Assembly: GCA_947089765.1 (NCBI GenBank) | Contig: CAMULM010000001.1 | Location: 139,756-203,755 of the forward strand | Source: an uncultured Roseburia sp. | GTDB lineage: Bacteria; Bacillota; Clostridia; Lachnospirales; Lachnospiraceae | Length of the DNA: 64,000 nt | Reading direction: 5' to 3' | Part shown: piece by piece, positions 11,712 through 63,121 of the stretch | How the letters are laid out: every line of letters begins with the position of its first letter | How positions within the stretch are numbered: position 1 is the first letter of the stretch | The notes under the pieces: model-generated | Told to the model about the DNA's origin: nothing | Database searches by the model: none | The model's input: only the letters and a program-made list of their open reading frames with translations | Made by a program: the position numbers and the translations under genes

Positions 11712-13064
11712 ATGGAAGAAACAGAGAGCAGGCAATATCAAAAAATGACGGAAACGCCTATTTGGAAGCTTGCGCTGCGGCTTGGCCTGCCGACAACGGT
11801 AAGTATGCTAATTACAAATATCTATAATATGGCAGATACATTTTATGTCAGTAAAATCAGCGTTTCTGCCAGTGGGGCGACGGGAATTGTCTTTGCGTTA
11901 ATGGCTGTGTTACAGGCGTTTGGATTTATGTTTGGCCATGGGGCGGGGAGCAATATCAGCCGTCTGCTTGGCGCGAAAAAAATCGAACGCGCGAAAGTGT
12001 TTACATCCACAAGCGTATTTTTGTCTTTTGCCGCCGGCTTACTGATTGGCGTATTGGGTCTGTTGTTTCCGGATGCGCTTATGCGTATGCTTGGCAGTAC
12101 GGACACCATACTTTCGGACGCAAAAATGTATGGGATATTTATTTTAATATCTGCTCCTGCATTGACGGTTGGATGCGCTTTGAATAACATTTTACGATAT
12201 GAAGGGGAAGCCGCATATGCAATGGCGGGACTTTGCGCAGGCGGGATTTTAAATATGCTTTTAGATCCGGTGTTGATTTTCCAATGCCAGATGGGAATTG
12301 CCGGAGCAGGATTATCGACGGCAGTTTCGCAATATCTGAGCACGGCAATCCTGTTTCTTCCATTTATCCGGAAAAAAACAGTAACGGAGATTCGGTTCCG
12401 TTTTATGTCAAAAGAGCGTGAGGATATTCAAAACATAATTCTTACCGGACTTCCAAGCCTTGCAAGACAGGGCTTAAACAGTGTGTCCACAGCAGTTCTT
12501 AATTTACAGGCGGCAATGTTTGGCGACGCCGCGGTTGCCGCAATGAGCATTGTAGGCAGGTGCGGCAACCTATTGTTTAGTTTTGCGCTTGGGATTGCGC
12601 AGGGCTTCCAGCCGATTTGCGCGTTTAATTATGGGGCGGGCAAACATGACAGGGTGAAAAAATCGGCTTTATTTACCATCTTGTTTGGAATGGGCGTTAT
12701 GGGCGCGCTTTGCGCCGTCTGTGATTTATTTGCGGTGGAAATCATACGGTTGTTCCGGGAAGAAGAAAGTGTGGGAAAGGTTGGCGCCGATGCATTTCAT
12801 TGGATGTGCCGCACTCTGTATTTTCTTCCGATTTCCGCAGTCGGAAGTATGCTGTTTCAGAGCATAGGCAAAAAAGGACGATCATTTTTCATTGCGGCGC
12901 TGCAAAGCGGATGCATTTCTATTCCATGTATGCTGATATTGCCAAACTTATTTGGAATTGCCGGTATCCAAATGGCGCAGCCGTGCGCATACCTGATTGC
13001 AGGGGCGCTTACAATACCTGTTCTTTTGCTGTTTTTTAAACAGGAAAATAAAAAAATTACATAA
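11712..13064 (+). CDS. MATE/MOP-superfamily transporter (multidrug/oligosaccharidyl-lipid exporter type), 12 TM
   Basis: 450 aa, polytopic. The N-terminal repeat-unit signature (ITNIYNMADTFYVSKISVSASGATGIVFALMAVLQAF) is typical of the MATE / polysaccharide-exporter fold. Confidence 0.7.
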   Translation: MEETESRQYQKMTETPIWKLALRLGLPTTVSMLITNIYNMADTFYVSKISVSASGATGIVFALMAVLQAFGFMFGHGAGSNISRLLGAKKIERAKVFTSTSVFLSFAAGLLIGVLGLLFPDALMRMLGSTDTILSDAKMYGIFILISAPALTVGCALNNILRYEGEAAYAMAGLCAGGILNMLLDPVLIFQCQMGIAGAGLSTAVSQYLSTAILFLPFIRKKTVTEIRFRFMSKEREDIQNIILTGLPSLARQGLNSVSTAVLNLQAAMFGDAAVAAMSIVGRCGNLLFSFALGIAQGFQPICAFNYGAGKHDRVKKSALFTILFGMGVMGALCAVCDLFAVEIIRLFREEESVGKVGADAFHWMCRTLYFLPISAVGSMLFQSIGKKGRSFFIAALQSGCISIPCMLILPNLFGIAGIQMAQPCAYLIAGALTIPVLLLFFKQENKKIT

Positions 13065-13127
13065 TTTTAAAGGGAAAAGGGCACGATAAAGCCGTAATCA
13101 TTATTTTAAATGTGGAGGCTTTTCGTG

Positions 13128-14522
13128 ATGGAGAACACAGATAAAAGACCGTTTGGTTTTCGGGATAAACTCGGATATATGTTTGGGGATTTTGGAAATG
13201 ATTTTACATTCATTTTTGCAAGTACGTTTTTAATGGTTTTTTATACAAAAGTATTAGGCATAGAAGCATCTATGGTCGGCGTATTGTTTTTAGTGGCAAG
13301 GTGTGTCGACGCATTCACGGATATCGGCATGGGGCGTATTGCAGATGCATCTGGTGAAAATCCAAAAGGCAGGTTTAAAGTCTGGATTCTGCGTATGTGC
13401 GGTCCGGTTGCGATTTCAAGTTTTCTGATGTATCAAAGTTCGTTGGCGGATGCATCCATGGGCGTAAAAGTGACTTATATGTTTGTCACTTATCTGCTTT
13501 GGGGTTCGGTTTTTTATACCTCGATTAATATACCTTATGGTTCCATGGCATCCGTTATTTCGGAAAAATCCAAAGACAGGCAGTCGCTTTCTGTCTACCG
13601 ATCCTTGGGTTCGACCTTTGCCGCCGTGGCGATTAGCGTGATTGCGCCTTTGTTTATTTACCGTTTAGACAGCAAAGGGAACCAAGTTGTCGTTGGAGAA
13701 ATGTTTACGCTTGTATCCGGTATATTTTCCGTTTTAGCAGTTTTATGTTATTTGCTTTGTTATTTCCTTGTGACAGAACGCGTGTCGGTTGGAAAAAAAG
13801 CGGCGAAAGCGGCGCGGACTTCTGTGGCAAAAACGTTATTGCAGGTTTTTTCTAACCGCGCATTACTTGCCGTAATTTTAATTTCAATTCTGACGCTTTG
13901 CGCAACAATTATGAGCCAATCCATTAGCACATTTTTATTTGCGGATTATTTTAAAAACACGAAAGCGCTCTCTGTCAATAATTTTTTAGGGCTTCCGGCG
14001 GCTTTGATTCTGGCGGTTGTCTCAGGAAAACTTGTCGAGCGTTTTGGGAGAAAAGAATTAACGGCGGCAGGCTGTATTGTGGCTGCGGCGATCTTTTTTT
14101 TAGTTTACTTTTTAAAACTGACGAATGTATGGGCCTATATTGTTTTAAGTTTTATTGCGGGTGTGGGTGGAATGTATTTGTTTAACATGACGATCTGGGC
14201 GATGATAACGGACGTGATTGACGATCAGGAAGTGCAGACAATGCAAAGAGACGATGGAACGATCTACGGCGTATATTCGTTTGCAAGAAAAGTCGGACAG
14301 GCGCTGGCAGGCGGCTTGGGCGGATTTGCGCTGTCTGCGATTGGATATGATTCTTTAGCCGCCGCACAGACAGATCCTGTGCGTTGGGGAATTTACAGCC
14401 TTTCCACTTTGTTTCCGGCAGTGATTTATACGGCTGTGGCTCTTGTATTTCTCGTTTTGTATCCGCTGTCAAAAAAGCGTGTGGAAGAAAATACGAAAGA
14501 ATTGCAAAGAAGGCGGGCTTAA
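13128..14522 (+). CDS. MFS transporter, glycoside-pentoside-hexuronide (GPH):cation symporter family
   Basis: GGAGG RBS before the ATG at 13128. FGDFGNDFTF and GRIADASGENPKGRFKVW resemble MelB/GPH signature regions. 12 predicted TM. Confidence 0.7.
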   Translation: MENTDKRPFGFRDKLGYMFGDFGNDFTFIFASTFLMVFYTKVLGIEASMVGVLFLVARCVDAFTDIGMGRIADASGENPKGRFKVWILRMCGPVAISSFLMYQSSLADASMGVKVTYMFVTYLLWGSVFYTSINIPYGSMASVISEKSKDRQSLSVYRSLGSTFAAVAISVIAPLFIYRLDSKGNQVVVGEMFTLVSGIFSVLAVLCYLLCYFLVTERVSVGKKAAKAARTSVAKTLLQVFSNRALLAVILISILTLCATIMSQSISTFLFADYFKNTKALSVNNFLGLPAALILAVVSGKLVERFGRKELTAAGCIVAAAIFFLVYFLKLTNVWAYIVLSFIAGVGGMYLFNMTIWAMITDVIDDQEVQTMQRDDGTIYGVYSFARKVGQALAGGLGGFALSAIGYDSLAAAQTDPVRWGIYSLSTLFPAVIYTAVALVFLVLYPLSKKRVEENTKELQRRRA

Positions 14523-42505: not shown

Positions 42506-44299
42506 ATGATTGTGTGGAACGTTCTGTTTTTGGCGGGTTTTATCACGGTAACAGTGGGTTTTTACCGCATGAAAAAGTCAGATGTTCCATTGGGCGGGGT
42601 GTTATGGCTTTTCATCTCATGTATCTGTGCATTGTGCTTCCATGCTTTAGCGGGCGCTTTATTTCACCGGATTTCTATTCCAATTTCTGTATTGAGCGTT
42701 GGAATCGCAGATTTGGCGTGTGGCAGTTTTCTATTATATAGCCATCGGCATGGTTATCAGAAATATAAATGGTCTTACGGCGATTTGGCAATGCTACTGT
42801 TGCTGTTGTGTCTCATTGGCGGGATAGGCTATGCAAGATTTGGGGCGGATTTGGCGTTTCGCTATCGTTCGGTGGATGGCATTACGCATTATTATGAGGC
42901 GGTTCGCGTAATGCAGACAGGAAAAATTGAAGCAATGTACTTTACGGCATTGAATGATTCTTTTTTGGCCGCCCTTTATAAACCGTTTACAAGCCTGCTT
43001 GAAATGTACCGGATAGAGCCTGTGGCGGATTTGATCTATCTATATTTGACGGCGGCATTGATGTATGGAATTGCGAGAGAGAAGGCGGGGAATTTATTTT
43101 GCATCATAGGATGCAGTTTTTTAGGAATCGTTTATTGCTTAGGTTATCCTTTAAATAACCTGATTTCTGGATTTTTATATCTTTCAGTTGGAGTTACAAT
43201 ATCCGCTCTGCTGGTTGTCGTTTCGGATTTGTATGCGCAGGGCGTTTTGCATGAAAGAGCGGCATTTCTTTTTCTGATGCTTGGCGCGCTTGGGTTAATT
43301 ACCTGCTATGCGTTGTTTTCGCCGCCCGTTTACTGCATGATGGCATTTGCGCTGGGACGAAAAAAGTGGAAAGAAAGCGCTTCCTTTTTGCAATGGCTGG
43401 GGAGTTTTACGGCTGTGTTTGCAATTCCCTGTATAGTTGGAATGGCGTATACTTATGCAGGCATTTTTAAAGATGGATTGACGGTCTCCGGCGCCATTGG
43501 GCTGGAAGGCTATATTTACCGGAATAACTGGTCGGATTTTATTCCGATTCTGCCGTTTGCGATTTATGGCTTTTTGGAAAATAGAAAAAGGAAAAAACAG
43601 ACGGCTCTTTTGGCGCTTACGGCAGTTGAGGCATTGTTTATGGCGCTTATGCTATTTTTGCAGTTTCAGGGCATTGTGTCGGCATATTATTACTATAAAA
43701 ATAATTTTCTTATGTGGCTGATTCTGTTCCTGCTGTCTATGGATGCTTTGTCTGGGATAAGTGATGGGGAATGCGCAGGCATACGGAAGCTGGCCTGCAT
43801 TTATGGGGCAGTCTGGTGCGTTTGTGTGGGATTGGCATTGGGTGGTTTGAATCAGGTAATGGGCAGGGAAGGGGAGGAGATTTTTTATGGCGACAGGGAG
43901 GGAATTGACTTTTGCAAAGTCTTCTGGCATAACAAGGAATTAATCTCCGGCATAGAAGCGAATGAGGAGAAAACGGCGCCGTCTGCAGAGCAGCAAAAAC
44001 TGTATGAGCTGTCAGCCGATAAATGCAGAACGGAAAATTGCAGTGTATTTCCGGTTGGCCGTTCAGGAGACCGTTATTTTATTAATGCGCTGACCGGACA
44101 ATGGAATGTCGCTTATCTGCATATTGATTCTCCGGAAGATTATGTGGCGTTGTTGGAAGAATGGCAGCCGGATTATATTTGTGTAATGAAAAAAAGTTCG
44201 GCGTACCGAAAAAACAAAAAATATCTCAGGCAGTTTCCCAAACTTTATGAAAATGAAGAAGGATTTTTTGCAAGATATAAGAAGGTGGAGCGAGAATGA
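42506..44299 (+). CDS. Polytopic membrane protein with cytoplasmic/extracytoplasmic C-terminal soluble domain (hypothetical; possible GT-C-like)
   Basis: About 12 TM helices then an approximately 170-aa C-terminal domain ending ...KKSSAYRKNKKYLRQFPKLYENEEGFFARYKK. RBS gggagag. Confidence 0.55.
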   Translation: MIVWNVLFLAGFITVTVGFYRMKKSDVPLGGVLWLFISCICALCFHALAGALFHRISIPISVLSVGIADLACGSFLLYSHRHGYQKYKWSYGDLAMLLLLLCLIGGIGYARFGADLAFRYRSVDGITHYYEAVRVMQTGKIEAMYFTALNDSFLAALYKPFTSLLEMYRIEPVADLIYLYLTAALMYGIAREKAGNLFCIIGCSFLGIVYCLGYPLNNLISGFLYLSVGVTISALLVVVSDLYAQGVLHERAAFLFLMLGALGLITCYALFSPPVYCMMAFALGRKKWKESASFLQWLGSFTAVFAIPCIVGMAYTYAGIFKDGLTVSGAIGLEGYIYRNNWSDFIPILPFAIYGFLENRKRKKQTALLALTAVEALFMALMLFLQFQGIVSAYYYYKNNFLMWLILFLLSMDALSGISDGECAGIRKLACIYGAVWCVCVGLALGGLNQVMGREGEEIFYGDREGIDFCKVFWHNKELISGIEANEEKTAPSAEQQKLYELSADKCRTENCSVFPVGRSGDRYFINALTGQWNVAYLHIDSPEDYVALLEEWQPDYICVMKKSSAYRKNKKYLRQFPKLYENEEGFFARYKKVERE

Positions 44300-46059
44300 T
44301 AACAGATTCCATAGGATATGTGGCGGCTTTTCTTTTTTTGTGGCAGGGGGAGTATTTCAGGAAAAAAAGCAGTCAGATTCAAAATGGCTTAGAAGCGCAA
44401 GTGACGTCTTTGTCAGGCGTTTTGTGTTTGAATGCACTGATTGCCGGATTGTGCAAAGTGGCAAAAATTCCCTTGAGTTTGCCTGTTATTGCGGTTTGCG
44501 ACGCCTGTGTGGGATTACTCTGCTGGCGTTTTATTCTTAAAAAGGGAGAAACGCAGAAATATGTCTGGCGCTTTACAGATGTGGCAGGCGTTTTGGGGAT
44601 AACGGCGTTTTGCGCAGTTCTTTGCGTAAGTGTGTTTACATCTTCCTTGCAATACCGCTATACCAATTCTGATGCGGGGCTTCATTTGCGGGAAGCGACG
44701 ATGGTCTTGCGGACAAATCAGGTGGAAGGAATGTTTTTTTCACATTTTCAGTTTGCAATGGTGATTGAAATTTTACAGCCTTTTTTGCGTGAAGTAACAT
44801 GGTACAAAGGATTTATTGCCGCAGATATTGCGTTTCAATGGCTGGAGATTTTGATTTTTTTTGTTTGGATAAAGAAGCTTGCGGCAGGTAAGTTTTTGAC
44901 GGCGCTTGCCTGTCTTACTGTGCCGTTCTATTATCTGGCGTATCCGATCCATAGTTTTTATTTTTCATTTACTTACTGGGGATTGGGCGTATTGTTATTA
45001 ATTTATATTTTGCTTCTTCTGCAAAGGGAAAGGGAGCGTATGGAGCGCCGTTCAATCGTTTTAGCGCAGCTTATGCCTGCCTGCTTTTCCCTTTGCGTCT
45101 GCTATATGTTGTTTGCGCCTGTGGCGTTTGTCTGTGTCTGGCTGGAATTGATGTGGGGCGGGGAGAAAAAAAGGCGTTTCTCTGTCAAATGTAAAGAGAC
45201 GCTTTTTGTGTTTTTACTGCCGTGCGCATTGGGGATTTATTTCTGCTATTTTGATTTTTTCTTCCGTCAGGGAACAAGTATTTTAGGAAGCATTCAAAAT
45301 GAAGGCGGGATTTATTCAAATTTATTTGGAAATTTTATTCTTTTAATGCCGATGGCAGGGTATGGGTGGATACGGGGGATCAGGAAAAAACAGCCTCAGG
45401 CAGTGTGTTTTACCGGATTTTTGGCTTTTGCGGCGTGTATGCTGCTTGGCGTGTTGTATGGCAGGATTTCAGAATATTATTTTTATAAGAATTATTATCC
45501 GCTTTGGGCGTTTAGCTGGTATTTTTTCTTTTATGGGATTTCTATTTTGTATAAAAAGAACAGGGAATTAGCGGCGGCAAATTTAGGAGGCTGTTTGCTC
45601 TGCGGCGTTTTGGTTTTTAGCGGCATTGATGGGAGGTTTGTTTCTTCCATGGACGAAAGGAACGGCGTAGACAGGCATTATAGTGAAGCGTTTGATCTTT
45701 ACGCGTGGAACCGGATTTACCGATCTTGGGGGCGGTCAGATCCGTCAAAAGGGCAGCTTGCGTTATATGAATGGGTGATGGCAAATTGCCGGGCTGACGG
45801 ATTGGAAACGCCGCTTTTGACGGAAAAAGAAGATTATGCGGATTGTTATTTTTATGAAGGCGTGGCCGGCTATGATTTGGGAGAGTTTTACGGGTGGCGG
45901 TATCCGAAAGAGGAGATTTTTAAGCGGATAAAAGAAAAAGGGATTTTGTACGCGGTTATTTTAAAAAAGAGTGAGTTTATAAAAAAACATAAAGAAGCGC
46001 TAGAGGAATATCCGGTATTGTTTGAAAACGAGGCGGGTTATGTGATTGGCTTTGAATAA
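44296..46059 (+). CDS. Polytopic membrane protein, paralog of the preceding gene
   Basis: ATGA start/stop overlap with the upstream gene. Same architecture, and the C-terminal domain ends ...KKSEFIKKHKEALEEYPVLFENEAGYVIGFE (parallel to the paralog). Confidence 0.55.
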   Translation: MITDSIGYVAAFLFLWQGEYFRKKSSQIQNGLEAQVTSLSGVLCLNALIAGLCKVAKIPLSLPVIAVCDACVGLLCWRFILKKGETQKYVWRFTDVAGVLGITAFCAVLCVSVFTSSLQYRYTNSDAGLHLREATMVLRTNQVEGMFFSHFQFAMVIEILQPFLREVTWYKGFIAADIAFQWLEILIFFVWIKKLAAGKFLTALACLTVPFYYLAYPIHSFYFSFTYWGLGVLLLIYILLLLQRERERMERRSIVLAQLMPACFSLCVCYMLFAPVAFVCVWLELMWGGEKKRRFSVKCKETLFVFLLPCALGIYFCYFDFFFRQGTSILGSIQNEGGIYSNLFGNFILLMPMAGYGWIRGIRKKQPQAVCFTGFLAFAACMLLGVLYGRISEYYFYKNYYPLWAFSWYFFFYGISILYKKNRELAAANLGGCLLCGVLVFSGIDGRFVSSMDERNGVDRHYSEAFDLYAWNRIYRSWGRSDPSKGQLALYEWVMANCRADGLETPLLTEKEDYADCYFYEGVAGYDLGEFYGWRYPKEEIFKRIKEKGILYAVILKKSEFIKKHKEALEEYPVLFENEAGYVIGFE

Positions 46060-53291: not shown

Positions 53292-54494
53292 ATGGGAAGT
53301 TCAAAATTTATGGGTAAGGTAACGAAATGCGCGGCTCTGGCTCTGGTGTTTGGAGTGGTTGGAGGAACAGCGTTTTCCGGAGCGAATTATTTTATGGAAA
53401 GTAATCTCTTTGCAGATGGAAAAGAAGTGACTGAGGAGGGAAAGACGATTGATTCCGACAAGATTCAGCCGGTGAGCACAGGGGCGACTTCCGCTTCCAC
53501 AGATATTTCAGGCGTGGTAAAAGACGTTATGCCATCGATTGTATCTATTACGAGCATGACGCAGCAGGAAATTTTAAGCTTTTTTGGACAGAACAGAATG
53601 TTTGAAAGTGAGAGCAGCGGTTCCGGAATTTTGATTGATAAAGATGACGAGTATTTGTATGTTGCGACGAATAATCATGTGGTAGAAGGCGCGAATGCTT
53701 TGACGGTGCAGTTTTCCGATGAGACGACGGCTCCCGCAACGGTGCGCGGCACAGATCCGGCCGATGATTTGGCGGTTGTCCAGATAAAGCTGTCAGATTT
53801 GACAGAGGAAACTTTGAAAACAATACAACTTGCGGTTATGGGCGATTCGGAAAAGATTTCTGTCGGGGATTCCGCGATCGCTATCGGTAACGCGTTAGGG
53901 TACGGTCAGTCGGTGACAACTGGCGTGATTAGCGCATTAGGGCGTGAGGTGACATTTCAGGATGAATCTACCGGAGAGACCGTAATGAGCCGTCTGATTC
54001 AGACGGATGCGGCAATTAATCCGGGCAACAGCGGCGGAGCGCTGATTAATACAAAAGGCGAGGTAATCGGGATTAATTCTTCAAAATATTCAGATACGAA
54101 GGTAGAGGGTATGGGCTTTGCGATTCCAATCGCGACGGCAGGCCCGATTTTGGAAGATTTGGTTGCAAACGGGAAAGTGACGACGACAGGCAGCCCATAT
54201 CTTGGCATTTATGGAAAAGAGGTAACGGAAGAAGTTTCCAGCCAGTACCAGATGCCGCGTGGCGTTTATGTTGCGCAGGTGATTGAAGGCGGCGGAGCCG
54301 AGGCAGCCGGCATAATCGAGGGCAATATTATTACGAAAGTGGGAGATAAGGAAATCGTGTCCATGGACGATTTAAAAGAGGCGCTCAGGGATTATCAGGT
54401 TGGAGATGCGGTAATGGTTACAGTTCAGGTAGCGGACAACGGCGGGTATTTGGAAAAGGAGGTTTCCGTTTCATTAACGGCAAGGACGGATTGA
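53292..54494 (+). CDS. htrA: HtrA/DegP-family trypsin-like serine protease with C-terminal PDZ domain
   Basis: N-terminal TM anchor. Catalytic triad context (ATNNHVVEGA, DLAVVQIK, GNSGGALIN). PDZ-like GAEAAGIIEGNIITKVGDKEI. Confidence 0.85.
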   Translation: MGSSKFMGKVTKCAALALVFGVVGGTAFSGANYFMESNLFADGKEVTEEGKTIDSDKIQPVSTGATSASTDISGVVKDVMPSIVSITSMTQQEILSFFGQNRMFESESSGSGILIDKDDEYLYVATNNHVVEGANALTVQFSDETTAPATVRGTDPADDLAVVQIKLSDLTEETLKTIQLAVMGDSEKISVGDSAIAIGNALGYGQSVTTGVISALGREVTFQDESTGETVMSRLIQTDAAINPGNSGGALINTKGEVIGINSSKYSDTKVEGMGFAIPIATAGPILEDLVANGKVTTTGSPYLGIYGKEVTEEVSSQYQMPRGVYVAQVIEGGGAEAAGIIEGNIITKVGDKEIVSMDDLKEALRDYQVGDAVMVTVQVADNGGYLEKEVSVSLTARTD

Positions 54495-54552
54495 TGGTTT
54501 GGCTTTTGGCATAGTCCTAGCTTTTACTGCAAATTAGAATAAGAAAGGCAAA

Positions 54553-54588
54553 AAAACCCTTGAAAATAATATATTTTCAAGGGTTTTC
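54553..54588. terminator. Bidirectional terminator after htrA
   Basis: aacccttgaaaata-atat-tattttcaagggtt with A-run before and T-run after. Confidence 0.6.
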
Positions 54589-54757
54589 CATAATTTGCTA
54601 TGTTGATGATTATCTCCTGCATAAGTTCAAAGCCTTATTTTTCGGCAATCATAAACATTCATATTCACTCACTTAGGTTTATTCAGGCTGTTTAATGTAT
54701 GATTTATGTCCATCAAAACAATCCGGATTCCTCTTTTATTTAGTCTGATCACCTTTT

Positions 54758-55063
54758 TCACAATACATTTATTTCTGCCGTCAGTTTATCATTTATCTTG
54801 ACCGGCACAGTATTGTTTTCAATCATATACTGACAGTCAATATATTCTTTACTTACAGGACAAACATTCTGAATTAAAAAAGCTCTATATTTACCATTTA
54901 CATATCCGAATCGTAAACCATCGTATTCCTTATAATGTTTTTTCTTTTTATTATATAAATATCTTATACTTTTCCGTTTTAGATGATATAGGAACCATCC
55001 ATAAATATCCTTCCATTTCAAAACAATAAAAACAGGGTCTCCCATGTACACCCTTTTCATCAT
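54758..55063 (-). CDS. Hypothetical small Lys/Tyr-rich protein in an AT-rich region
   Basis: ORF only; low GC. No recognisable motif and no obvious RBS (aagggtgtacatggg). May be non-coding. Confidence 0.25.
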   Translation of the reverse strand: MMKRVYMGDPVFIVLKWKDIYGWFLYHLKRKSIRYLYNKKKKHYKEYDGLRFGYVNGKYRAFLIQNVCPVSKEYIDCQYMIENNTVPVKINDKLTAEINVL

Positions 55064-55159
55064 TATCTTTATTTCCCATCAATCCACAATTTGGAAAGCA
55101 TTATAATATTCATCCTTAATAAAATAAAAGTTACCTGTATTCAAATTATTTCCTATGTA

Positions 55160-55188
55160 CAAAAGCGCTCCGCTGTTAAGCGGAGCGT
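55160..55188 (-). terminator. Rho-independent terminator of the rplM-rpsI operon (minus strand)
   Basis: gcgctccgc-tgttaa-gcggagcg hairpin, followed on the minus strand by cttttgt. Confidence 0.5.
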
Positions 55189-55399
55189 AAATATTTGTAT
55201 CCCAGCCATTTGTTAGTCGCTCGCTGGGTAGCGAAAAATATTTGTATCTGCGCCTTTTCTATAAATGCCGATATGCAGTTCCGGCAGAATAATAAGAGGT
55301 TCATCTGAACTTCTTATTTACATTATATTCATTTTCTAATAAATATCCACTGGGATTTTATATAAAAAGAGATAAAATCCGTACTCGATATTCCTTTTC

Positions 55400-55798
55400 C
55401 TATCTCTTTGAGAACTGCGGAGCGCGACGAGCCGCCTTGAGGCCGTATTTCTTACGCTCTTTCATTCTTGGATCTCTGGTAAGATATCCGTTCGATTTAA
55501 GAACTGGACGATAGTCTGAATCTGCCTGAAGCAGCGCTCTTGCAATGCCGTGGCGGATTGCTCCTGCCTGACCGGTATAGCCGCCGCCTTTTACGTTTAC
55601 TAAAACGTCGAATTTATCAACAGTTTCTGTAGCCACTAATGGCTGGCGTACAATCACTTTTAAGGTTTCCAATCCTAAATAATCATCAATGTCTCTTTTA
55701 TTTATTGTAACTTTACCTGTTCCCGGAATTAAATATACTCTGGCAACAGATGATTTTCTTCTTCCTGTTCCATAATATCTTGCATTAGACACTTTCAC
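55400..55798 (-). CDS. rpsI: 30S ribosomal protein S9
   Basis: [19 protein letters not shown] and C-terminal [17 protein letters not shown] are invariant S9 signatures. Confidence 0.95.
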
Positions 55799-56449: not shown

Positions 56450-56480
56450 GAACAGCAAAATAAAAAACGGCAGGGCATAA
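56450..56480 (-). terminator. Rho-independent terminator ending the four-gene cassette (minus strand)
   Basis: Minus-strand cggcagggttatgccctgccg hairpin followed by ttttttatttt, 20 nt after the stop of the gene at 56499. Confidence 0.65.
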
Positions 56481-56498
56481 CCCTGCCGCCGCTGCCGT

Positions 56499-57638
56499 TT
56501 AGGTTTCTGAGGGAGGATTGTTTTGATCCTCTTTTTTGAGTTCGATTCCTGAAATTAATTTGTTATAGTCTATTTTTTTCTGGCTGCATTGTCTGGAAAT
56601 TTCATCTGCATGTTTTTGCGCTTCGACGGACTGGTTCTGCGCTTCTGCAAGCAGGCTGTAATAATTAGATTCTTCTTTGGCATAGGAATCTAAACTGCCT
56701 GTGTCGCTTACGCTTTTTAGCGTAAATAAGCAGGAAAGCTCTGCCGCATCGGCAGGTTCCGTTTGGGCAGGTTTTGAAGCGAGCGATTTTACAGCGTTTG
56801 GAATTTGGGTCTGGAAAGTGTTCCAGTATGTATTTAACTGGTCAAGGTTTGCCTGTAGTTGTTCCGCTTCTTCTGTTTCATTTTTGTTGATAAGTTCCTG
56901 AAGTTTTAACTGGTATTGGTTTTGCTGCTGGCTGCCAATCCGTTTAAACTGCTGTAATTGTTCATTTAATGCTTTTTCGGCGGCGGACTGTTGGGTTTCT
57001 AAAAGCAGGATTTCCTGATTCAACGATTTGATTCTTTCGCTTCTGTCTTTTCGTTCTTCCGGCAGTTCCTGTCCGTTTGCATCTTTTATTTTCGAATCAA
57101 TAAGAGCTGGGGATACGGAAGCCGCCATCATATCAAGGACTCTGGCAAGGCCTTCCGGCGTCCCATGGTTGGTCGCCCGCACATCGACGTGGTATTTGGC
57201 GGAATTGTCCGTACTTCTAGTGTTGGAGCTATGGGAGCTGACGCTTCCGCTGATATTGACTTTTGCAATTCCAAGATTAATAGAGCCGGAAGCAGCCGCG
57301 CTTAAATCGGTTGCTTTTTCACTTTTTTCGCTTTCCTTGACTTCCATATCAAATAAGATATTCACTTCATCGACCTGAAGGTTTGGAATTGGGACAATTG
57401 CAAGCATTGGCACGTCGATTTTCATTTCGTCTTGATTTGTGGTGCCGTCTTCGTTATAAGATTTTTTCTCAAATTGGAACGAGGCTTTTCGTGTATTCCC
57501 TTTTTCGTCAAAGCCTACTTTATTGATAAATGACGCTGTGCTGTCTGCAAGCTGCATACTTGCATCTGCAGCCGCGCGTAAAGGCCCGCCGATAAGGTTT
57601 CCCATATCTAGGCCTGAAAACTGATCTCCGATCGCCAT
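56499..57638 (-). CDS. Uncharacterized protein B of the cassette: N-terminal approximately 180-aa domain (paralogous to gene 59734-60594) with Ser/Thr-rich loop, then approximately 200-aa Gln/Glu-rich coiled coil
   Basis: Start MAIGDQFSGLDMGNLIGGPL preceded by AAGGAGG at an 8-nt spacing (the upstream ATG at 57659 would place this RBS inside the coding sequence). Domain blocks align with gene A (see findings). Ser-rich ISGSVSSHSSNTRSTDNS. Heptad-like EQLQ... tail. Confidence 0.6.
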   Translation of the reverse strand: MAIGDQFSGLDMGNLIGGPLRAAADASMQLADSTASFINKVGFDEKGNTRKASFQFEKKSYNEDGTTNQDEMKIDVPMLAIVPIPNLQVDEVNILFDMEVKESEKSEKATDLSAAASGSINLGIAKVNISGSVSSHSSNTRSTDNSAKYHVDVRATNHGTPEGLARVLDMMAASVSPALIDSKIKDANGQELPEERKDRSERIKSLNQEILLLETQQSAAEKALNEQLQQFKRIGSQQQNQYQLKLQELINKNETEEAEQLQANLDQLNTYWNTFQTQIPNAVKSLASKPAQTEPADAAELSCLFTLKSVSDTGSLDSYAKEESNYYSLLAEAQNQSVEAQKHADEISRQCSQKKIDYNKLISGIELKKEDQNNPPSET

Positions 57639-57651
57639 AAGCGCTACCTCC

Positions 57652-59367
57652 TTATTCATTTACTGGTAAAAATGTTTCGATTAGTTCATCTGCTGAAAAT
57701 TCTGCTAAATAATGAATGGTATTTTTGAAAATTTCAGATATCGCGCCAGTTTCCTGATACAGATCTGTTTGGGCAAAAGCCATTCCGTTTATCAGTACAT
57801 TCGAGAGATTTCCTGTAGAAAGGTCTAGTTGGATTAGAGGAATATCTCCTTGCTGGAAACTGTGATGAAGGGCTTCTTTTAACACATTTTCCTGTATATT
57901 TTGTATAAAGAACGTTGTTTTTAGATTTTCCTGAATGAGATTGCAGTAGTCATCAGCAATCCTATCTTTATCTTCGTAATCCGCATAAATTGAAAGCGCC
58001 CGCGCAAGTTCTGAAGTCCGGACAGGAACTAGACGCAGGAGAGGATTTTGCCGGATTAAAGAAGTCAAAAAATCAGAGAGTTCTTCAATGTGTTCCATAC
58101 AATACTGGCTTGCAGTGAAAAAACCATTTGTAAAATCTGGATAAAAAAATTGAACATTATCATAACAAGTTCCATCTTTGCCGTCAAATGTGAAATATGA
58201 TACGGCGTCGTCCCCAAAAGCGTTCTGACGTGAACAAAGACTGTCCCGAATCATTGTGGCATTTAGGCTGGCAGAAGTGATGACGTTTATCTGAAAGGCG
58301 CATTCGGCATCGAGGACGATGGGGCCGTTTTCTGTGGGCATGATATTGTCCTGATGAAGATCGGTTACGCCTGCAAGTTTTGCCGCATAGGCTAAGACCC
58401 CCATTTTTTTGTAGTAACTGTGTAATTCCGTTTCCGTAAAATCCGGCTTTTTCGTGACAAGTTCTTCCATTCCGTAGTTTGCATTGTCAAAAATAACCAT
58501 ACACGGCAGATGGCATTCATCGGGAAGCCGTTCGTTTAAATAGGTGATGAAGCTGTTTGGCCCTGTAAATAAATAATCCGCTTTCATATTCCGCGGCTTA
58601 TATGCCCATTGGCTGGAATTTCGTTCCGCAAACAGTACCTGTCTGCCAAGCATATGTGGGTCAGATCCGGAAACGCGGATATCATATCCTTCTAAATCAA
58701 CGCTCACAGCGCCTAATAGGAAGTTTACGGTATTTTCAAAACGTGTATGTACAAGCGTATAACGGGTTTCAGACGGTTCTTCCGCATATAGATTTATGCT
58801 GACGTCCATAATAGCGGAGGCATATAAATCAGAGAGCTTTTGCGGAGAGTTTAAAAGCGGCCGGATCATATGCGTTTGTCCGATGTACTTTTGGATAAGC
58901 GGAAGGGGATTTACTTCCATAATGTCCCAAAATGACAATTCGGCTTCCGCAAATGGAGCAATTCCCTCATTTATTCTAACGGGAACTGCCATTTGATTTA
59001 AAATAGGAAGCAGTTCCATAAACTGATGAAACAGTTCACCGGAATGTATGGCTTCCATACAGCAGATAACGCCGGAGCAGGACTGTGGTTCGGAAAGGGT
59101 GGATTCCCGTAGTTTGGCAAGTTCATCTGAAATGTCCATGTTTAACCGTTTGGAAAGCGAAGCTGCCGCCTGATCAAACAAATCTTCTGTATTCTGAGAA
59201 GTTGTAATCATTGCATCTCCTTTCTGGGTTTTGGCATTTTTCAGTTTCATTTTTGGGTCTGGCAAAGATACGCTGTATTGCGCTTCGTCTGCCAATATAG
59301 GGCGGTAGTCTGCCAGATAATAATAATATATGGGAAGCTTTTCTCCATTATGTGTTTGTACCGTCAT
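57652..59367 (-). CDS. Protein-kinase-like fold enzyme related to the dehydratase (DUF4135) domain of class II lanthipeptide synthetases (LanM), standalone, no LanC cyclase domain
   Basis: AYKPRN (Lys) ... TDLHQDN (D-x-H-x-x-N catalytic loop, about 58347-58362) ... VLDAE, with the second Asp exactly 17 residues after the first, as in LctM D242/D259. Start at MTVQTHNG (ATG 59365-59367) chosen for its GGAGG RBS at 9 nt. The ORF could extend to a GTG at 59487, overlapping the upstream gene. Confidence 0.6.
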   Translation of the reverse strand: MTVQTHNGEKLPIYYYYLADYRPILADEAQYSVSLPDPKMKLKNAKTQKGDAMITTSQNTEDLFDQAAASLSKRLNMDISDELAKLRESTLSEPQSCSGVICCMEAIHSGELFHQFMELLPILNQMAVPVRINEGIAPFAEAELSFWDIMEVNPLPLIQKYIGQTHMIRPLLNSPQKLSDLYASAIMDVSINLYAEEPSETRYTLVHTRFENTVNFLLGAVSVDLEGYDIRVSGSDPHMLGRQVLFAERNSSQWAYKPRNMKADYLFTGPNSFITYLNERLPDECHLPCMVIFDNANYGMEELVTKKPDFTETELHSYYKKMGVLAYAAKLAGVTDLHQDNIMPTENGPIVLDAECAFQINVITSASLNATMIRDSLCSRQNAFGDDAVSYFTFDGKDGTCYDNVQFFYPDFTNGFFTASQYCMEHIEELSDFLTSLIRQNPLLRLVPVRTSELARALSIYADYEDKDRIADDYCNLIQENLKTTFFIQNIQENVLKEALHHSFQQGDIPLIQLDLSTGNLSNVLINGMAFAQTDLYQETGAISEIFKNTIHYLAEFSADELIETFLPVNE

Positions 59368-59471
59368 TTTTTTTAAACCTCCGTTTGACATAAAATGTGT
59401 TTTTAATCCCATGAAATAGGAGTGCATAAGGTGTAAATTCAGCCATTTTTTCAAAGTATCCATTTTAAAGC

Positions 59472-59744
59472 CTACAATTCTAACCACATCGGTTTTCGGG
59501 GAAAGCCGATATGGTAGGTGGTCTGCTCCATTGTCAGTTCATGTTCCCCGATGGCGTACCTGCCAATAGAAATATCCTTGCCGATAATGACCCCTTTTGG
59601 GCTTTCGTTTAGACATCGGTTTAACAAGGCCGCCTGCTGTTGTTTGGATTCCTCAGAAAGCGGGTGGTTCGGGTTTATGCTGCCAAGTGTAATTGTTTTA
59701 ATAAACCTTATATCTTCATAATGTGTTTTGCAGTCAGGATTCAT
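59472..59744 (-). CDS. Small (90 aa) soluble protein of unknown function, second gene of the cassette
   Basis: AAGGAGG RBS 8 nt upstream of the ATG. The start overlaps the stop of the upstream gene by 11 nt. Sequence MNPDCKTHYEDIRFIKTITLGSINPNHPLSEESKQQQAALLNRCLNESPKG... has no recognisable family. Confidence 0.5.
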   Translation of the reverse strand: MNPDCKTHYEDIRFIKTITLGSINPNHPLSEESKQQQAALLNRCLNESPKGVIIGKDISIGRYAIGEHELTMEQTTYHIGFPRKPMWLEL

Positions 59745-60594
59745 TTGGGGCGCCTCCTTTTTTGAAGGATTCCACTTTATTTTCTAGCATCGCTTCTTTC
59801 ACGCTTATGAGTTCTGTTAAGATTGTTTGTCTTAATTCTTCATATTCCTTTGGGTCATATGGAGCGTTAGAGAACTCTTTAGACAGGCATTCCGGCTCTA
59901 GTTCTTCTTGTAAAGATTCTCTTGTTTCCATATATTCTGTGATTTCCTGATGCAGTTTATGTAACGCCGCTTCTTGCTGTCTGAGGGAACGTTGGAGTAA
60001 AAAATCATCTTTTTCAGAATTTTGCACAATTCCGTCACTTGAAATGGGTGAAGCATCGATTTGCTTTGCGACAGGATTTGCGTTTAGAATGTCTAAAATC
60101 CGCATATAGCCTTCCGTTTCGTCTACTGCTTTTAAATCGATTTTATAGTTGACAACGGGCTGTGCGGCGGATTTTTCCCGCTTCAGGGAACTAATTTTTC
60201 CAACAGTGAGCGGGGCGTTTTGCTCGTTTTCGGAAATGTGGACTTCCGTTGAAAATTCTAGCGTGGCATTTTTTATTTTTAAGTTTGGGATTTTTATAAT
60301 TGATAACAGAGGCACTTCGATTTGGACGCTTTCCATATAGGGTTCATTGTGTTCTGCCGGGTGTAAGCGTTCATATGCCAGATTTAATTTTTTCAGGTAC
60401 AGTGTTTCTTCGCCGTTTCTAAGTTTCACTGTGCCCATGCTTTTGATTTCGTCAAGGATTGCCAGTGAAAGCCTTGCATTTGAGGAGGCAATGGCGTCAA
60501 TGGGCGCGTAGACTAGGTCATTAAGCGGAAGAAATTGCTTTCCGCTTGTTATTTTATCTTGATTGGACTGTTCCTTTTGTTCTGTTTCCTTCAT
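59734..60594 (-). CDS. Uncharacterized protein A of the cassette (287 aa): N-terminal approximately 180-aa domain paralogous to gene 56499-57638 plus helical acidic C-terminal tail
   Basis: Start MKETEQKEQ preceded by GGAGGGG 5 nt upstream (the ORF track start at 60651 lacks an RBS). Blocks LVYAPIDAIASSNARLSLAILDEI, IEVPLLSIIKIPNLKIKNATLEFSTEV and KIDLKAVDETEGYMRILDIL match B. Confidence 0.6.
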   Translation of the reverse strand: MKETEQKEQSNQDKITSGKQFLPLNDLVYAPIDAIASSNARLSLAILDEIKSMGTVKLRNGEETLYLKKLNLAYERLHPAEHNEPYMESVQIEVPLLSIIKIPNLKIKNATLEFSTEVHISENEQNAPLTVGKISSLKREKSAAQPVVNYKIDLKAVDETEGYMRILDILNANPVAKQIDASPISSDGIVQNSEKDDFLLQRSLRQQEAALHKLHQEITEYMETRESLQEELEPECLSKEFSNAPYDPKEYEELRQTILTELISVKEAMLENKVESFKKGGAPNES

Positions 60595-60703: not shown

Positions 60704-61492
60704 CTAGTCTTTATTTTTCAGTTCGACTGTATCCGCCCAGAACCTTTTTGGGATATTTTGAATTTGGAGTTTTGGATTTTTCCGCGCTTCTATGGCAATC
60801 GTTTCAAAAAAAGCAAGCCAGAGATTTTTTAAGCGTGTCTCATCTGAGGATAAATCCTCTGTAAGTTCCATCGGAAAAGATGCAGCGTCAGTGATGAAAT
60901 AACCTTTGCCCGACGGGTGGGCGGCTGCAATCCGGCGCGTGGCATCGTAGATGATAAAATTCTCTAATGGGAGACGGTCGGTAAAGTGCTCCGCCAAAAT
61001 TGGCAGGACATAATTTTTGGCATGAATCTGTGAAAATAAAATTCCGGTTTTTAATTCTGCAAAACGAAGAAATTCTAACAGATGGTGGGCTTCATTCAGT
61101 GTTTGGCGGCGCAGTTCAAAAATGCAGGCGATACAGGGTTCGCCTAAATAGTCTAAAACTTTTGCGCCAGCCGGAAGCGTAAGCGCCATAACGACAGTCT
61201 GGTAAATGGCATTTGCTTTATCCATAGCCAATGCGCGGCAGTTTCCGTTTGCCAATGCGCTGCTGCAAATTGTTTCATAGAAGTGGGCGCCAAGACGTTC
61301 TGTCAGGGTACGCGCCACTTTCCGGCTTTTTTCAAAATCGGTTTTTACCGGAATATATTCTGAAAAAAGCGTAAGCGTTCCGCTTTGGTCGGAGGAAAGC
61401 TGTATATTTTTGTGCCCATAGCGGGACGCCCATGCATCATAGATGCCTGTTAAAATTCCGTCAATACTGTCTTCACATTGAAATACATACAT
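60704..61492 (-). CDS. DUF4130/TIGR03915-family protein (putative DNA-metabolism/UDG-like partner of the radical SAM DNA repair protein)
   Basis: Start MYVFQCEDSIDGILTGIYDAW with a GGAGGCGG RBS (the listed ORF start at 61507 is a TTG whose following codons are that RBS). This family invariably neighbours the TIGR03916 radical SAM gene. Assignment from recalled family features. Confidence 0.6.
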   Translation of the reverse strand: MYVFQCEDSIDGILTGIYDAWASRYGHKNIQLSSDQSGTLTLFSEYIPVKTDFEKSRKVARTLTERLGAHFYETICSSALANGNCRALAMDKANAIYQTVVMALTLPAGAKVLDYLGEPCIACIFELRRQTLNEAHHLLEFLRFAELKTGILFSQIHAKNYVLPILAEHFTDRLPLENFIIYDATRRIAAAHPSGKGYFITDAASFPMELTEDLSSDETRLKNLWLAFFETIAIEARKNPKLQIQNIPKRFWADTVELKNKD

Positions 61493-62852
61493 GTTTGCCG
61501 CCTCCAAATGAAACGTCGTCGAATAGGGAAAGCTGCCGGTAGCCTTCTTCCCGCAGTTCTTTTGGGATCTGCGTTTTGTCGGAGAGCAGGTTTCGGCAGA
61601 TATAGTCCTCGTCCAGCTTGGTCGGATACATCATATGGCCGGAACAGGTGATAAAATATAAGGCGCGCTTTAGGACGACGCCGATTTTTTTTAGGTCGCA
61701 AAAATCAAGCGTAGAGCCGCGGCGGGCAGCTACAATGCGTTTGGCGGATTTTGCGCCTATGCCCGGGACGCGGAGTAAGGTTCTATAGTCGGCAGTCTGG
61801 ATTTCGATTGGAAAAATCTCTAAATGGCGAAGCGCCCAGTCACATTTCGGGTCCAGATAGACGTTGAAATTCGGGCGGTCTTCGGAGAGAAGCTCGTCTA
61901 CGGTAAAATGGTAGTAACGTAAAAGCCAATCCGCCTGATAAAGCCTATGTTCCCGCAGGAGAGGAGGGCCGCCGGAAAGGACGGGAAGGTTTGGATTTTG
62001 GCTGACATTGACGAACGCGGAATAAAAGACGCGTTTTAAGTCAAAGTTTTGATAAAGACCTTCTGCAACGCTCATAATTTGATAATCGTTTTCAGGCGTG
62101 GCTCCGATGATCATCTGTGTGCTTTGTCCGGCCGGCGTAAATCTGGGGGCGTTGCGGTACAGCATAAGTTCATTTTTGTTCTGGGCAATGCTGTTTTGGA
62201 TTTGGCGCATGGGTCTTAGGATTGTGCGGCGGGATTTACAGGGCGCAAGCTCTTTTAAGGCTCTGTGGGTGGGCAATTCTAAATTCACGCTCATGCGGTC
62301 TGCAAGAAATCCCGCTTTTTCAATTAAGAGAGGGTCAGCGCCGGGGATTGCCTTCACATGGATATAGCCTTGAAAGCGGTAGAAGGAACGCAGGCGGCAG
62401 ACAACTTGGTAGATGAGATCCATGGTGTAATTTGGGGACTTGATAATGCCGGAACTTAAAAATAACCCTTCAATGTAGTTGCGGCGGTAAAATTCTATAG
62501 TAAGCGCGCAGATTTCTTCCGGCGTAAAAGTGGCGCGGGGAATGTCGTTTTCGCAATTATTCTGGCAGTAGGAGCAGTTAAAAATACATTCATTGGTAAG
62601 TAGAATTTTCAGCAGTGAGACACAGCGGCCATCTGCGGAAAAGGAATGGCAGATCCCGCAGGATTTTGTATTGCCGATTCCCATGCCGTCGCCGCGTCTG
62701 TCAACGCCGCTGGAAGTGCATGCAACGTCATATTTTGCGGCGTCTGCCAGAATGGTGAGTTTTTCCATAATCGTGGGGGACAGGTGTGTGGCAGGAGAGC
62801 TTTTTTGTAAAATGGGGTCTGGGATTAAGGTGATATTGGCAGAGTTCTTCAT
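61473..62852 (-). CDS. Putative DNA modification/repair radical SAM protein (TIGR03916-like) with C-terminal helix-hairpin-helix
   Basis: Radical SAM CxxxCxxC (NECIFNCSYCQN). N-terminal KLTILADAAKYDVACTSSG. HhH LLRVPGIGAKSAKRIVAARR. AAGGAG RBS before the ATG at 62852. Overlaps the downstream gene by 20 nt. Confidence 0.75.
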   Translation of the reverse strand: MKNSANITLIPDPILQKSSPATHLSPTIMEKLTILADAAKYDVACTSSGVDRRGDGMGIGNTKSCGICHSFSADGRCVSLLKILLTNECIFNCSYCQNNCENDIPRATFTPEEICALTIEFYRRNYIEGLFLSSGIIKSPNYTMDLIYQVVCRLRSFYRFQGYIHVKAIPGADPLLIEKAGFLADRMSVNLELPTHRALKELAPCKSRRTILRPMRQIQNSIAQNKNELMLYRNAPRFTPAGQSTQMIIGATPENDYQIMSVAEGLYQNFDLKRVFYSAFVNVSQNPNLPVLSGGPPLLREHRLYQADWLLRYYHFTVDELLSEDRPNFNVYLDPKCDWALRHLEIFPIEIQTADYRTLLRVPGIGAKSAKRIVAARRGSTLDFCDLKKIGVVLKRALYFITCSGHMMYPTKLDEDYICRNLLSDKTQIPKELREEGYRQLSLFDDVSFGGGKHVCISM

Positions 62853-63121
62853 AGCAATGCTCCTTACTTGCAAACAAATGTTCTTGATAATGTATTTTAT
62901 CATGTCATTATTCAAATTGCAAGAGAAAATCGAATATTTGTTCTGAAAATTTTTGGAATAATGAAGTCTTTACATTCTCCTTAAAAGGGGAGATGAAATA
63001 GCAGGGAGGCGGATATGTTGACGCGGTCTTTTGCCTTTTGTATAATGATGCCAGAGTAGGGACGGAATGGGCTGATGATGGCAAAAACCGGATTTGTCGG
63101 AGCGGAAAAGGAGAATATAAA

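Follow-up and report, generated by a model that had tools for sequence, protein, structure and literature searches.

The window analysed here, a 64,000-nucleotide stretch of contig CAMULM010000001.1 from an uncultured Roseburia sp., encodes on its minus strand an enzyme that carries a LanM-type dehydratase domain, has no LanC cyclase domain and stands outside any lanthipeptide pathway. Sequence comparison identifies its open reading frame (ORF) as an in-frame fusion of this domain to a small protein, the "gene-3" protein of a conserved cassette that also encodes two DUF2589 proteins, and places the enzyme in a large LanC-free clade of DUF4135 proteins. With its catalytic residues retained, it is probably a catalytically competent stand-alone Ser/Thr dehydratase. 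Our reading of its role, which we hold tentatively and at somewhat less than even odds, is that of an active dehydratase of proteins that would serve the DUF2589 cassette as an accessory module with an effector function. To our knowledge, the only setting in which LanM dehydratase chemistry, which uses ATP to turn Ser/Thr into dehydro-amino acids, has been described is the biosynthesis of peptide natural products. The clade shows an intact LanM active site recruited to settings other than those of peptides synthesized on the ribosome and modified after translation (RiPPs), namely fusion to a DUF2589-cassette protein and fusion to a cargo domain of extracellular contractile injection systems (eCIS).

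The ORF is composed as follows, residues being numbered along its 611 amino acids (aa).

57652 to 59487, minus strand: whole enzyme ORF, 611 aa from GTG 59487; stop codon TAA at 57652-57654.
59275 to 59487, minus strand: N-terminal gene-3 module, residues 1-71, homologous to the stand-alone third cassette proteins of 74-86 aa.
59191 to 59274, minus strand: low-complexity linker SLPDPKMKLKNAKTQKGDAMITTSQNTED, residues 72-99, between the gene-3 module and the enzyme.
57655 to 59190, minus strand: dehydratase (kinase and phospho-lyase) domain, residues 100-611, a helical N-terminal cap followed by a lipid-kinase-like core, without a cyclase domain.
59044 to 59079, minus strand: Cys patch CSGVICCMEAIH, residues 137-148, on a helix of the N-terminal cap.
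58654 to 58668, minus strand: P-loop GSDPH with D276 and H278, the counterparts of the CylM phosphate-elimination residues D252 and H254; aligned to CylM 246-276.
58588 to 58605, minus strand: AYKPRN, residues 295-300, with the invariant K297 corresponding to CylM K274.
58336 to 58371, minus strand: catalytic loop GVTDLHQDNIMP, residues 373-384, with D376, H378 and N381 corresponding to CylM D347, H349 and N352.
58303 to 58323, minus strand: PIVLDAE, residues 389-395, with D393 corresponding to the Mg2+ ligand D364 of CylM; E395 is likewise invariant.
58015 to 58035, minus strand: RLVPVRT with R485 and T491, corresponding to the elimination residues R506 and T512 of CylM; the profile is aligned to CylM VRNVIRPT.
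57838 to 57849, minus strand: GDIP, shared with CylM GDIPIF; it lies in the dehydratase domain's C-terminal part.

An original prediction, made from the sequence alone, had read the LanM-like motifs AYKPRN, GVTDLHQDNIMP and PIVLDAE in this minus-strand ORF, and database searches bear it out. The protein matches Pfam DUF4135 (PF13575) with an E value of 2.3e-25 and 90 bits against a cut-off of 29, covering positions 48-183 of the 378 in the profile. When PDB sequences were searched with phmmer, only LicM2 (1.8e-8) and CylM (1.3e-5) were matched, and the alignment placed TDLHQDNIMP..VLDAE of the enzyme on TDLHYENII..IIDNE of CylM and YKPR on YKPK. The motifs superimpose on LanM catalytic residues. 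The 17-residue spacing of D376 and D393 is the same as that of D347 and D364 in CylM, and the C-terminus lies 218 residues past D393.

Relatives were collected by an exhaustive profile search, which returned 3373 representatives at E values of at most 1e-3 and 282 at 1e-10 or better; the family alignment comprised the window protein and 97 relatives (98 sequences), and metagenomes were scanned with a 15-sequence alignment. H278, K297, D376, N381, D393, R485 and T491 do not vary across the 98 sequences, of which at least 90% keep D276 and H378. The 98-sequence profile aligns to CylM 191-589 (5.5e-32), and R485 and T491 fall on CylM R506 and T512. Mutagenesis of CylM (PMC4550811) assigned phosphorylation to K274, D347, H349, N352 and D364, and phosphate elimination to D252, H254, R506 and T512, the T512A substitution abolishing elimination completely. 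All nine catalytic residues so defined have counterparts in our enzyme. Since CylM 1-625, from which the cyclase domain has been removed, still dehydrates efficiently, an enzyme without a cyclase is biochemically plausible.

The predicted fold points in the same direction. An AlphaFold2 (AF2) model built from the 98-sequence alignment had a mean predicted local distance difference test score (pLDDT) of 82, with high values over residues 100-605 and poor ones over 1-96, and a Foldseek search of the PDB with this model returned LicM2 (2e-12) and CylM (4e-10), followed by PI3K/PI4K lipid kinases. Identity as a HipA or APH kinase was rejected, as there was no HipA_C or APH Pfam match at an E value of 0.1 or below and none in the Foldseek search of the PDB. 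A lipid-kinase fold would suit an enzyme that merely phosphorylates a protein, a lipid or a small molecule and never eliminates the phosphate, a possibility that had been named in the original prediction, and one relative indeed matches the Pfam model PI3_PI4_kinase. We nevertheless consider kinase-only chemistry or a non-protein substrate improbable, because the counterparts of the four CylM residues that act in elimination and not in phosphorylation are kept besides the kinase residues, each of them in all or in no fewer than 90% of the 98 sequences. Full dehydration is favoured on the same ground. As to the Cys patch on the N-terminal cap, only C-x-G-x3-C is kept, in the four closest homologues and not across the wider family; with its conservation ending at close homologues, the patch is probably not a metal site.

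The absence of a LanC cyclase from the enzyme and its neighbours, also proposed at the outset, extends to the whole window. The LANC_like Pfam model matched neither the enzyme nor the neighbouring proteins, a tblastn search with the C-terminal 420 aa (the LanC domains) of 18 genuine LanMs found nothing below an E value of 0.1 within the 64 kb, and a LanC hidden Markov model (HMM) gave no match at 1 or below among all window ORFs of at least 60 aa. The same HMM, as a positive control, recognised LanC in 22 database representatives and in some 50 genuine LanMs of metagenome loci. The window likewise yielded no LanA precursor, no C39/ABC exporter of the LanT type, no immunity gene, no NHLP or Nif11 precursor and no RiPP protease. 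Against the full-length LanM model TIGR03897 the enzyme scored 68 bits, below the cut-off of 304, and aligned only to positions 139-271 of 932. Failing this model and having no cyclase, precursor or exporter, the enzyme is a member of the DUF4135 family and not a LanM synthetase. The earlier view of a dehydratase-only LanM relative that would give dehydro- or phospho-Ser/Thr products or act on protein substrates thus stands, with catalytic residues kept and LanC absent.

With CylM (PDB 5dzt) and LicM2 (PDB 6st5) the enzyme shares the fold, the nine catalytic residues, the D..17..D and R..6..T spacings and GDIPxF. Class II LanMs, in contrast, have LanC, a LanA precursor, an exporter and immunity genes, all of which are missing at the enzyme locus; the dehydratase domain of CylM measures 625 aa against about 510 aa in the enzyme, and an N-terminal fusion to a cassette protein is found in the enzyme only. 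A parallel, as far as descriptions go, is offered by AerF/PoyF and NstG, proteins of proteusin or thiazole/oxazole-modified microcin (TOMM) type clusters, which are LanM dehydratases without a cyclase and are predicted or shown to make dehydroalanine (Dha) and dehydrobutyrine (Dhb) without lanthionine rings. By analogy the enzyme could be a RiPP tailoring dehydratase that produces a linear dehydrated peptide from an unrecognised precursor, and there is a radical S-adenosylmethionine (SAM) gene upstream on the same strand, while two LanC-less DUF4135 proteins (loci L054 and L082) adjoin C39-ABC exporters. We judge this very improbable. The enzyme locus has none of the NHLP-type precursors, epimerases, methyltransferases and proteases that the AerF/PoyF and NstG clusters contain, and a small precursor ORF would find no room between the cassette genes, which overlap or almost touch. 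The 90-aa protein encoded by the cassette is just as conserved where the enzyme is lacking and has no Ser/Thr/Cys-rich tail. The upstream radical-SAM gene belongs to a TIGR03916/TIGR03915 DNA-repair pair; being of the TIGR03916 type and neither an epimerase nor a methyltransferase, it does not mark a RiPP cluster, and this candidate was rejected. The L054-type proteins, finally, belong with true LanMs by score.

These L054 and L082 proteins are 764-794 aa long, lack LanC and are encoded on high-GC metagenome contigs (L054 7332..13343, L082 3771..9921); the genes that follow them, judged from N-terminal sequence, are C39-peptidase ABC exporter-like and HlyD-like. They may represent a separate cyclase loss of the RiPP type.

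CcaM (LanMbC) of the dehydrazole pathway is a divergent, leader-independent DUF4135 dehydratase whose product has dehydro-amino acids and no lanthionine. Unlike the enzyme, it has kept a cyclase-like domain, of the zinc-free class III kind and needed for activity, and it acts on azole-containing peptides in a YcaO cluster. With AerF and NstG already described and CcaM making dehydro-residues only, the LanC-less architecture itself is not new. What appears new, within the literature searched, is that such an enzyme occurs outside a RiPP context, that it is fused to a DUF2589-cassette protein and that there is a large LanC-free clade which includes eCIS cargo.

The fusion became apparent from the position of the start codon. 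In the original prediction the protein began at ATG 59367 (Met41), which has a good GGAGG and sits inside the gene-3 module, upstream of the linker. That start is wrong, because residues 12-68 are homologous to a separate small cassette gene and this homology spans Met41; by the same comparison the true start is GTG 59487 or ATG 59463, some 100-120 nt upstream. GTG 59487 creates a 16-nt overlap with the upstream 90-aa gene, identical to the overlap in locus L007. ATG 59463 gives a 603-aa ORF and is the start from which the database protein P0001, 99% identical to the enzyme, is called.

The separate ORFs matching residues 12-68 (loci L004, L007-L009 and L012-L016) were detected by blastp at E values of 2e-9 to 1.5e-6, and an alignment of the module has 14 invariant columns. 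Loci L016, L004 and L003 carry an 86-aa gene-3 ORF and a 533-aa DUF4135 gene as separate, adjacent genes; gene 3 and the enzyme share one reading frame in the window and in L001 and L002. The linker region cannot be aligned among homologues, and pLDDT falls below 50 for residues 55-96. A 61-aa database protein (P0285) was considered as a split gene and rejected as a contig-end artefact.

The remaining parts of the cassette surround the enzyme on the same strand.

59734 to 60594, minus strand: DUF2589-A, cassette gene 1, 286 aa from ATG 60594 with GGAGG before it; Pfam DUF2589 match at 5.9e-17.
59472 to 59744, minus strand: 90-aa protein, cassette gene 2, assigned to no known family in family searches.
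56499 to 57638, minus strand: DUF2589-B, last cassette gene, 379 aa from ATG 57638; Pfam DUF2589 match at 1.4e-40.
56466 to 56490, minus strand: intrinsic-terminator-like hairpin immediately downstream of DUF2589-B, of 11 bp, 7 of them GC, with a T-run behind it.

In related Lachnospiraceae loci the conserved order is DUF2589-A (about 285-300 aa), the 90-aa protein, the 74-86-aa protein and DUF2589-B (about 380-420 aa). DUF2589-A consists of a DUF2589 domain and a C-terminal coiled coil, and its orthologues in 10 loci are 34-46% identical; DUF2589-B consists of a highly conserved DUF2589 domain and a long coiled-coil hairpin, and its ribosome-binding site GGAGG immediately follows the stop codon of the enzyme. 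The terminator-like hairpin marks the end of the cassette, ahead of an rplM promoter-like site. Between the window and other cassettes, identity is about 70% for DUF2589-B and for the 90-aa protein (for the latter whether or not the enzyme is present), 34-46% for DUF2589-A, about 40% for the gene-3 module and about 41% for the enzyme. The cassette differs in chromosomal position between genomes, and it occurs without the enzyme in many genomes and with it in few. Indeed, the same search method found more than 1136 homologues of DUF2589-B at 50% identity or more against three close ones of the enzyme. These comparisons identify the enzyme as a rare optional add-on, inserted between cassette genes 3 and 4.

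A DUF2589 profile found no relative among PDB sequences, PHROGs or PADLOC; DUF2589 is named in two papers, neither of which gives data on function, and no functional study of it was found in the literature. The AF2 model of DUF2589-B (85 homologues) is confident for the coiled-coil tail and has a pLDDT below 50 for the DUF2589 domain. This domain is near-identical across cassettes (L001-L017) whose other genes are 34-46% identical. Such extreme conservation, coexisting with so low a pLDDT, suggests that the DUF2589-B domain may be an obligate oligomer or a conformational switch. In the locus L010, a 146-aa eCIS_core (DUF4157) protein and a phage-type integrase (12238..13842) lie about 3 kb downstream of a DUF2589 cassette, in which the 90-aa gene comes after DUF2589-B rather than before it.

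Ranking of the enzyme's relatives, with database representatives defined as clusters at 50% identity, separates a LanC-free group from the true LanMs. The best 113 representatives are without LanC, 94 of them being at least 450 aa long, and LanC-bearing proteins of about 900-1100 aa begin at rank 114. Among 76 clade members scanned with Pfam, DUF4135 was present in all 76, eCIS_core (DUF4157) in 17 and LANC_like in none. No viral homologues of the enzyme were found in BFVD.

The eCIS connection is seen in gene context as well as in domains, four relatives (L005, L006, L023 and L024) showing one or the other. In Anaerobacterium chartisolvens (L005) and in a metagenome-assembled genome of Bacillota (L006), a relative of the enzyme lies inside an eCIS locus, among genes that were labelled by eye from their translations as baseplate-like, AAA ATPase, DUF4157-type toxin, DUF4280 (PAAR-like) and DUF4255; this relative has an N-terminal leader in common with the neighbouring DUF4157-type protein. 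L024 has an AAA ATPase gene, followed by one for an HNH nuclease (toxin) and one for a protein joining eCIS_core to DUF4135. According to Geller et al., eCIS toxins carry an N-terminal DUF4157 and sit at the 3' end of the operon, a description that the position and the N-terminal domain of the L024 relative fit. The main texts of the eCIS toxin surveys of Geller et al. and Danov et al. (PMC8213781, PMC11297309) make no mention of LanM- or kinase-type toxins. Clade members of this kind thus bear DUF4157/eCIS_core at the N-terminus, and the enzyme carries the small protein of the DUF2589 cassette instead.

On these grounds the favoured reading, tentative as it is, can be spelled out. The enzyme would phosphorylate Ser/Thr hydroxyls with ATP and then eliminate the phosphate, yielding dehydroalanine or dehydrobutyrine, and with no cyclase at hand no thioether rings would form. 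Its substrates would be proteins. The gene-3 module presumably docks or tethers the enzyme onto an assembly of DUF2589-A and DUF2589-B, so that it would act as an effector activity, irreversibly turning Ser/Thr in a protein target into a dehydro-amino acid. An effector role is favoured because the same clade supplies eCIS cargo, with eCIS_core fusions among toxins at the operon 3' end; by this analogy, effector action seems to us a better description than modification of the cassette's own proteins.

The end product predicted for the enzyme has a precedent among bacterial effectors. OspF, SpvC and HopAI1 are phosphothreonine lyases that act on host proteins by irreversible elimination from phosphothreonine, leaving dehydrobutyrine. 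Their fold is unrelated to that of the enzyme, and the comparison is one of function; they also need a host kinase to act first, whereas a LanM-type domain would perform both steps. If the enzyme acts on proteins, it would represent a novel kind of toxin or modifier, one whose protein modification is irreversible, electrophilic and made in a single step, and it might serve as a tool for site-specific installation of dehydroalanine.

Several observations weigh against this reading. No injection, secretion or defence genes lie near the enzyme; Pfam detects no eCIS_core in the window protein itself, and the window has no sheath, tube, baseplate or eCIS AAA genes. More than 99% of the cassettes seen are without the enzyme, which implies an accessory role. 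A profile search with the gene-3 module gave 16 matches, all small stand-alone ORFs, with no other fusion. The effector model does not account for L018 1882..4233 and L103 2437..4955, where LanC-less DUF4135 proteins pair with members of the RhiA family (PF27136), about 204-214 aa long and encoded to either side of the DUF4135 gene. Moreover, the enzyme is equally explicable as a modifier of cassette proteins. At L103 a LytTR regulator lies upstream of the DUF4135/RhiA pair. A polymorphic-effector system was considered and rejected for want of any sign of one, the gene-3 module being fused to no other domain in the database search; PADLOC-DB 2.0 defence models gave only marginal matches to the cassette proteins (E values of 0.013 or above).

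Modification of the cassette's own proteins would mean that the enzyme dehydrates or phosphorylates DUF2589-A/B, for instance at the invariant Ser/Thr-rich stretch SGSVSSHSSNTRSTDNS of DUF2589-B, and the resulting Dha/Dhb could cross-link subunits or switch the assembly. A co-encoded substrate is the normal target of a LanM, the fusion joins the enzyme to a cassette protein, its gene is tightly packed with its neighbours (the 16-nt overlap upstream, and a DUF2589-B ribosome-binding site that abuts the stop codon), and DUF4135-like and DUF2589 genes share operons in at least two unrelated operon types. The second of these runs DUF2589 (about 205-212 aa), a protein of about 285-290 aa, one of about 174-185 aa, a VWA protein (455 aa) or a 119-aa protein, and DUF4135 (about 525-545 aa); it occurs in distant lineages at L019 3518..8575, at L102 473..4484 and probably at L021 380..2397. 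Comparison of these operons indicates that the link between DUF4135 and DUF2589 is recurrent and independent of the cassette type found in the window. At L019, two large TIR-domain proteins are encoded directly upstream of the operon.

The strict conservation of the Ser/Thr-rich segment would likewise suit a modification site, but the segment is just as conserved in most cassettes, which are without the enzyme. Nor did any residue class in DUF2589-A, DUF2589-B or the 90-aa protein distinguish enzyme-positive from enzyme-negative cassettes in a small sample of 3-4 loci per group, and relatives fused to eCIS_core cannot target a co-encoded DUF2589 protein. We regard self-modification of the cassette as somewhat unlikely, though it is the chief alternative, and keep effector action as the tentative choice.

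A wider model is more doubtful still, and we put it forward as an unlikely one. It would make the LanC-free clade a group of self-sufficient "eliminylation" enzymes, each performing phosphorylation and beta-elimination on Ser/Thr of target proteins with one domain, that serve as payload of eCIS through DUF4157 and of the DUF2589 cassette through gene 3, the cassette being a new effector-carrying or conflict apparatus. DUF2589 also gains a first experimental handle from the finding, a defined enzyme physically coupled to it.

LanM-like proteins outside lanthipeptide clusters have been described before. Those of the CA_C0082 type in Clostridium have a non-biosynthetic role and are linked to agr loci; they are described as lacking the conserved catalytic residues and as having a LanC-like part without the zinc motif, whereas the enzyme has its catalytic residues intact and no LanC part. 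For a 556-aa "distant LanM" of Cardinium only a passing mention was found in the literature.

Outside the cassette the window has the ordinary content of a Firmicute chromosome, with genes for glycosidases, a methyl-accepting chemotaxis protein, two-component systems, ABC sugar transport, purine synthesis, acetate kinase, AddAB, HtrA and rplM-rpsI. Some of its features deserve mention.

60704 to 62915, minus strand: radical-SAM/helix-hairpin-helix protein TIGR03916 (685 bits) and its TIGR03915/DUF4130 partner (208 bits), a putative DNA-modification or repair pair.
54758 to 55063, minus strand: 101-aa ORF resembling CptIN, the toxin of a type III toxin-antitoxin system (NCBIfam NF047359); it scores 61 bits where the cut-off is 90 and aligns only to profile positions 56-122 of 150.
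42506 to 44299 and 44296 to 46059, plus strand: overlapping ORFs of 597 and 587 aa, without a Pfam match at an E value of 1e-5 or below.
23427 to 28772, minus strand: 1781-aa BspA-type leucine-rich repeat protein with a Big_2 domain.
1605 to 6836, plus strand: 1743-aa dockerin/fn3/M60-peptidase/F5_F8 surface-type protein.

An AT-rich spacer of about 110 nt is all that lies between the cassette and the TIGR03916/TIGR03915 pair upstream of it on the same strand; in other genomes the pair is no part of the cassette. A tandem-repeat antitoxin array for the CptIN-like ORF was looked for in 54400-55500 and not found, and this ORF may be a truncated remnant. The 597/587-aa pair sits between a DUF2142 membrane-protein gene and addB. 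The two large surface-type proteins, of 1743 and 1781 aa, are consistent with an origin from a gut Firmicute of Lachnospiraceae-like affinity.

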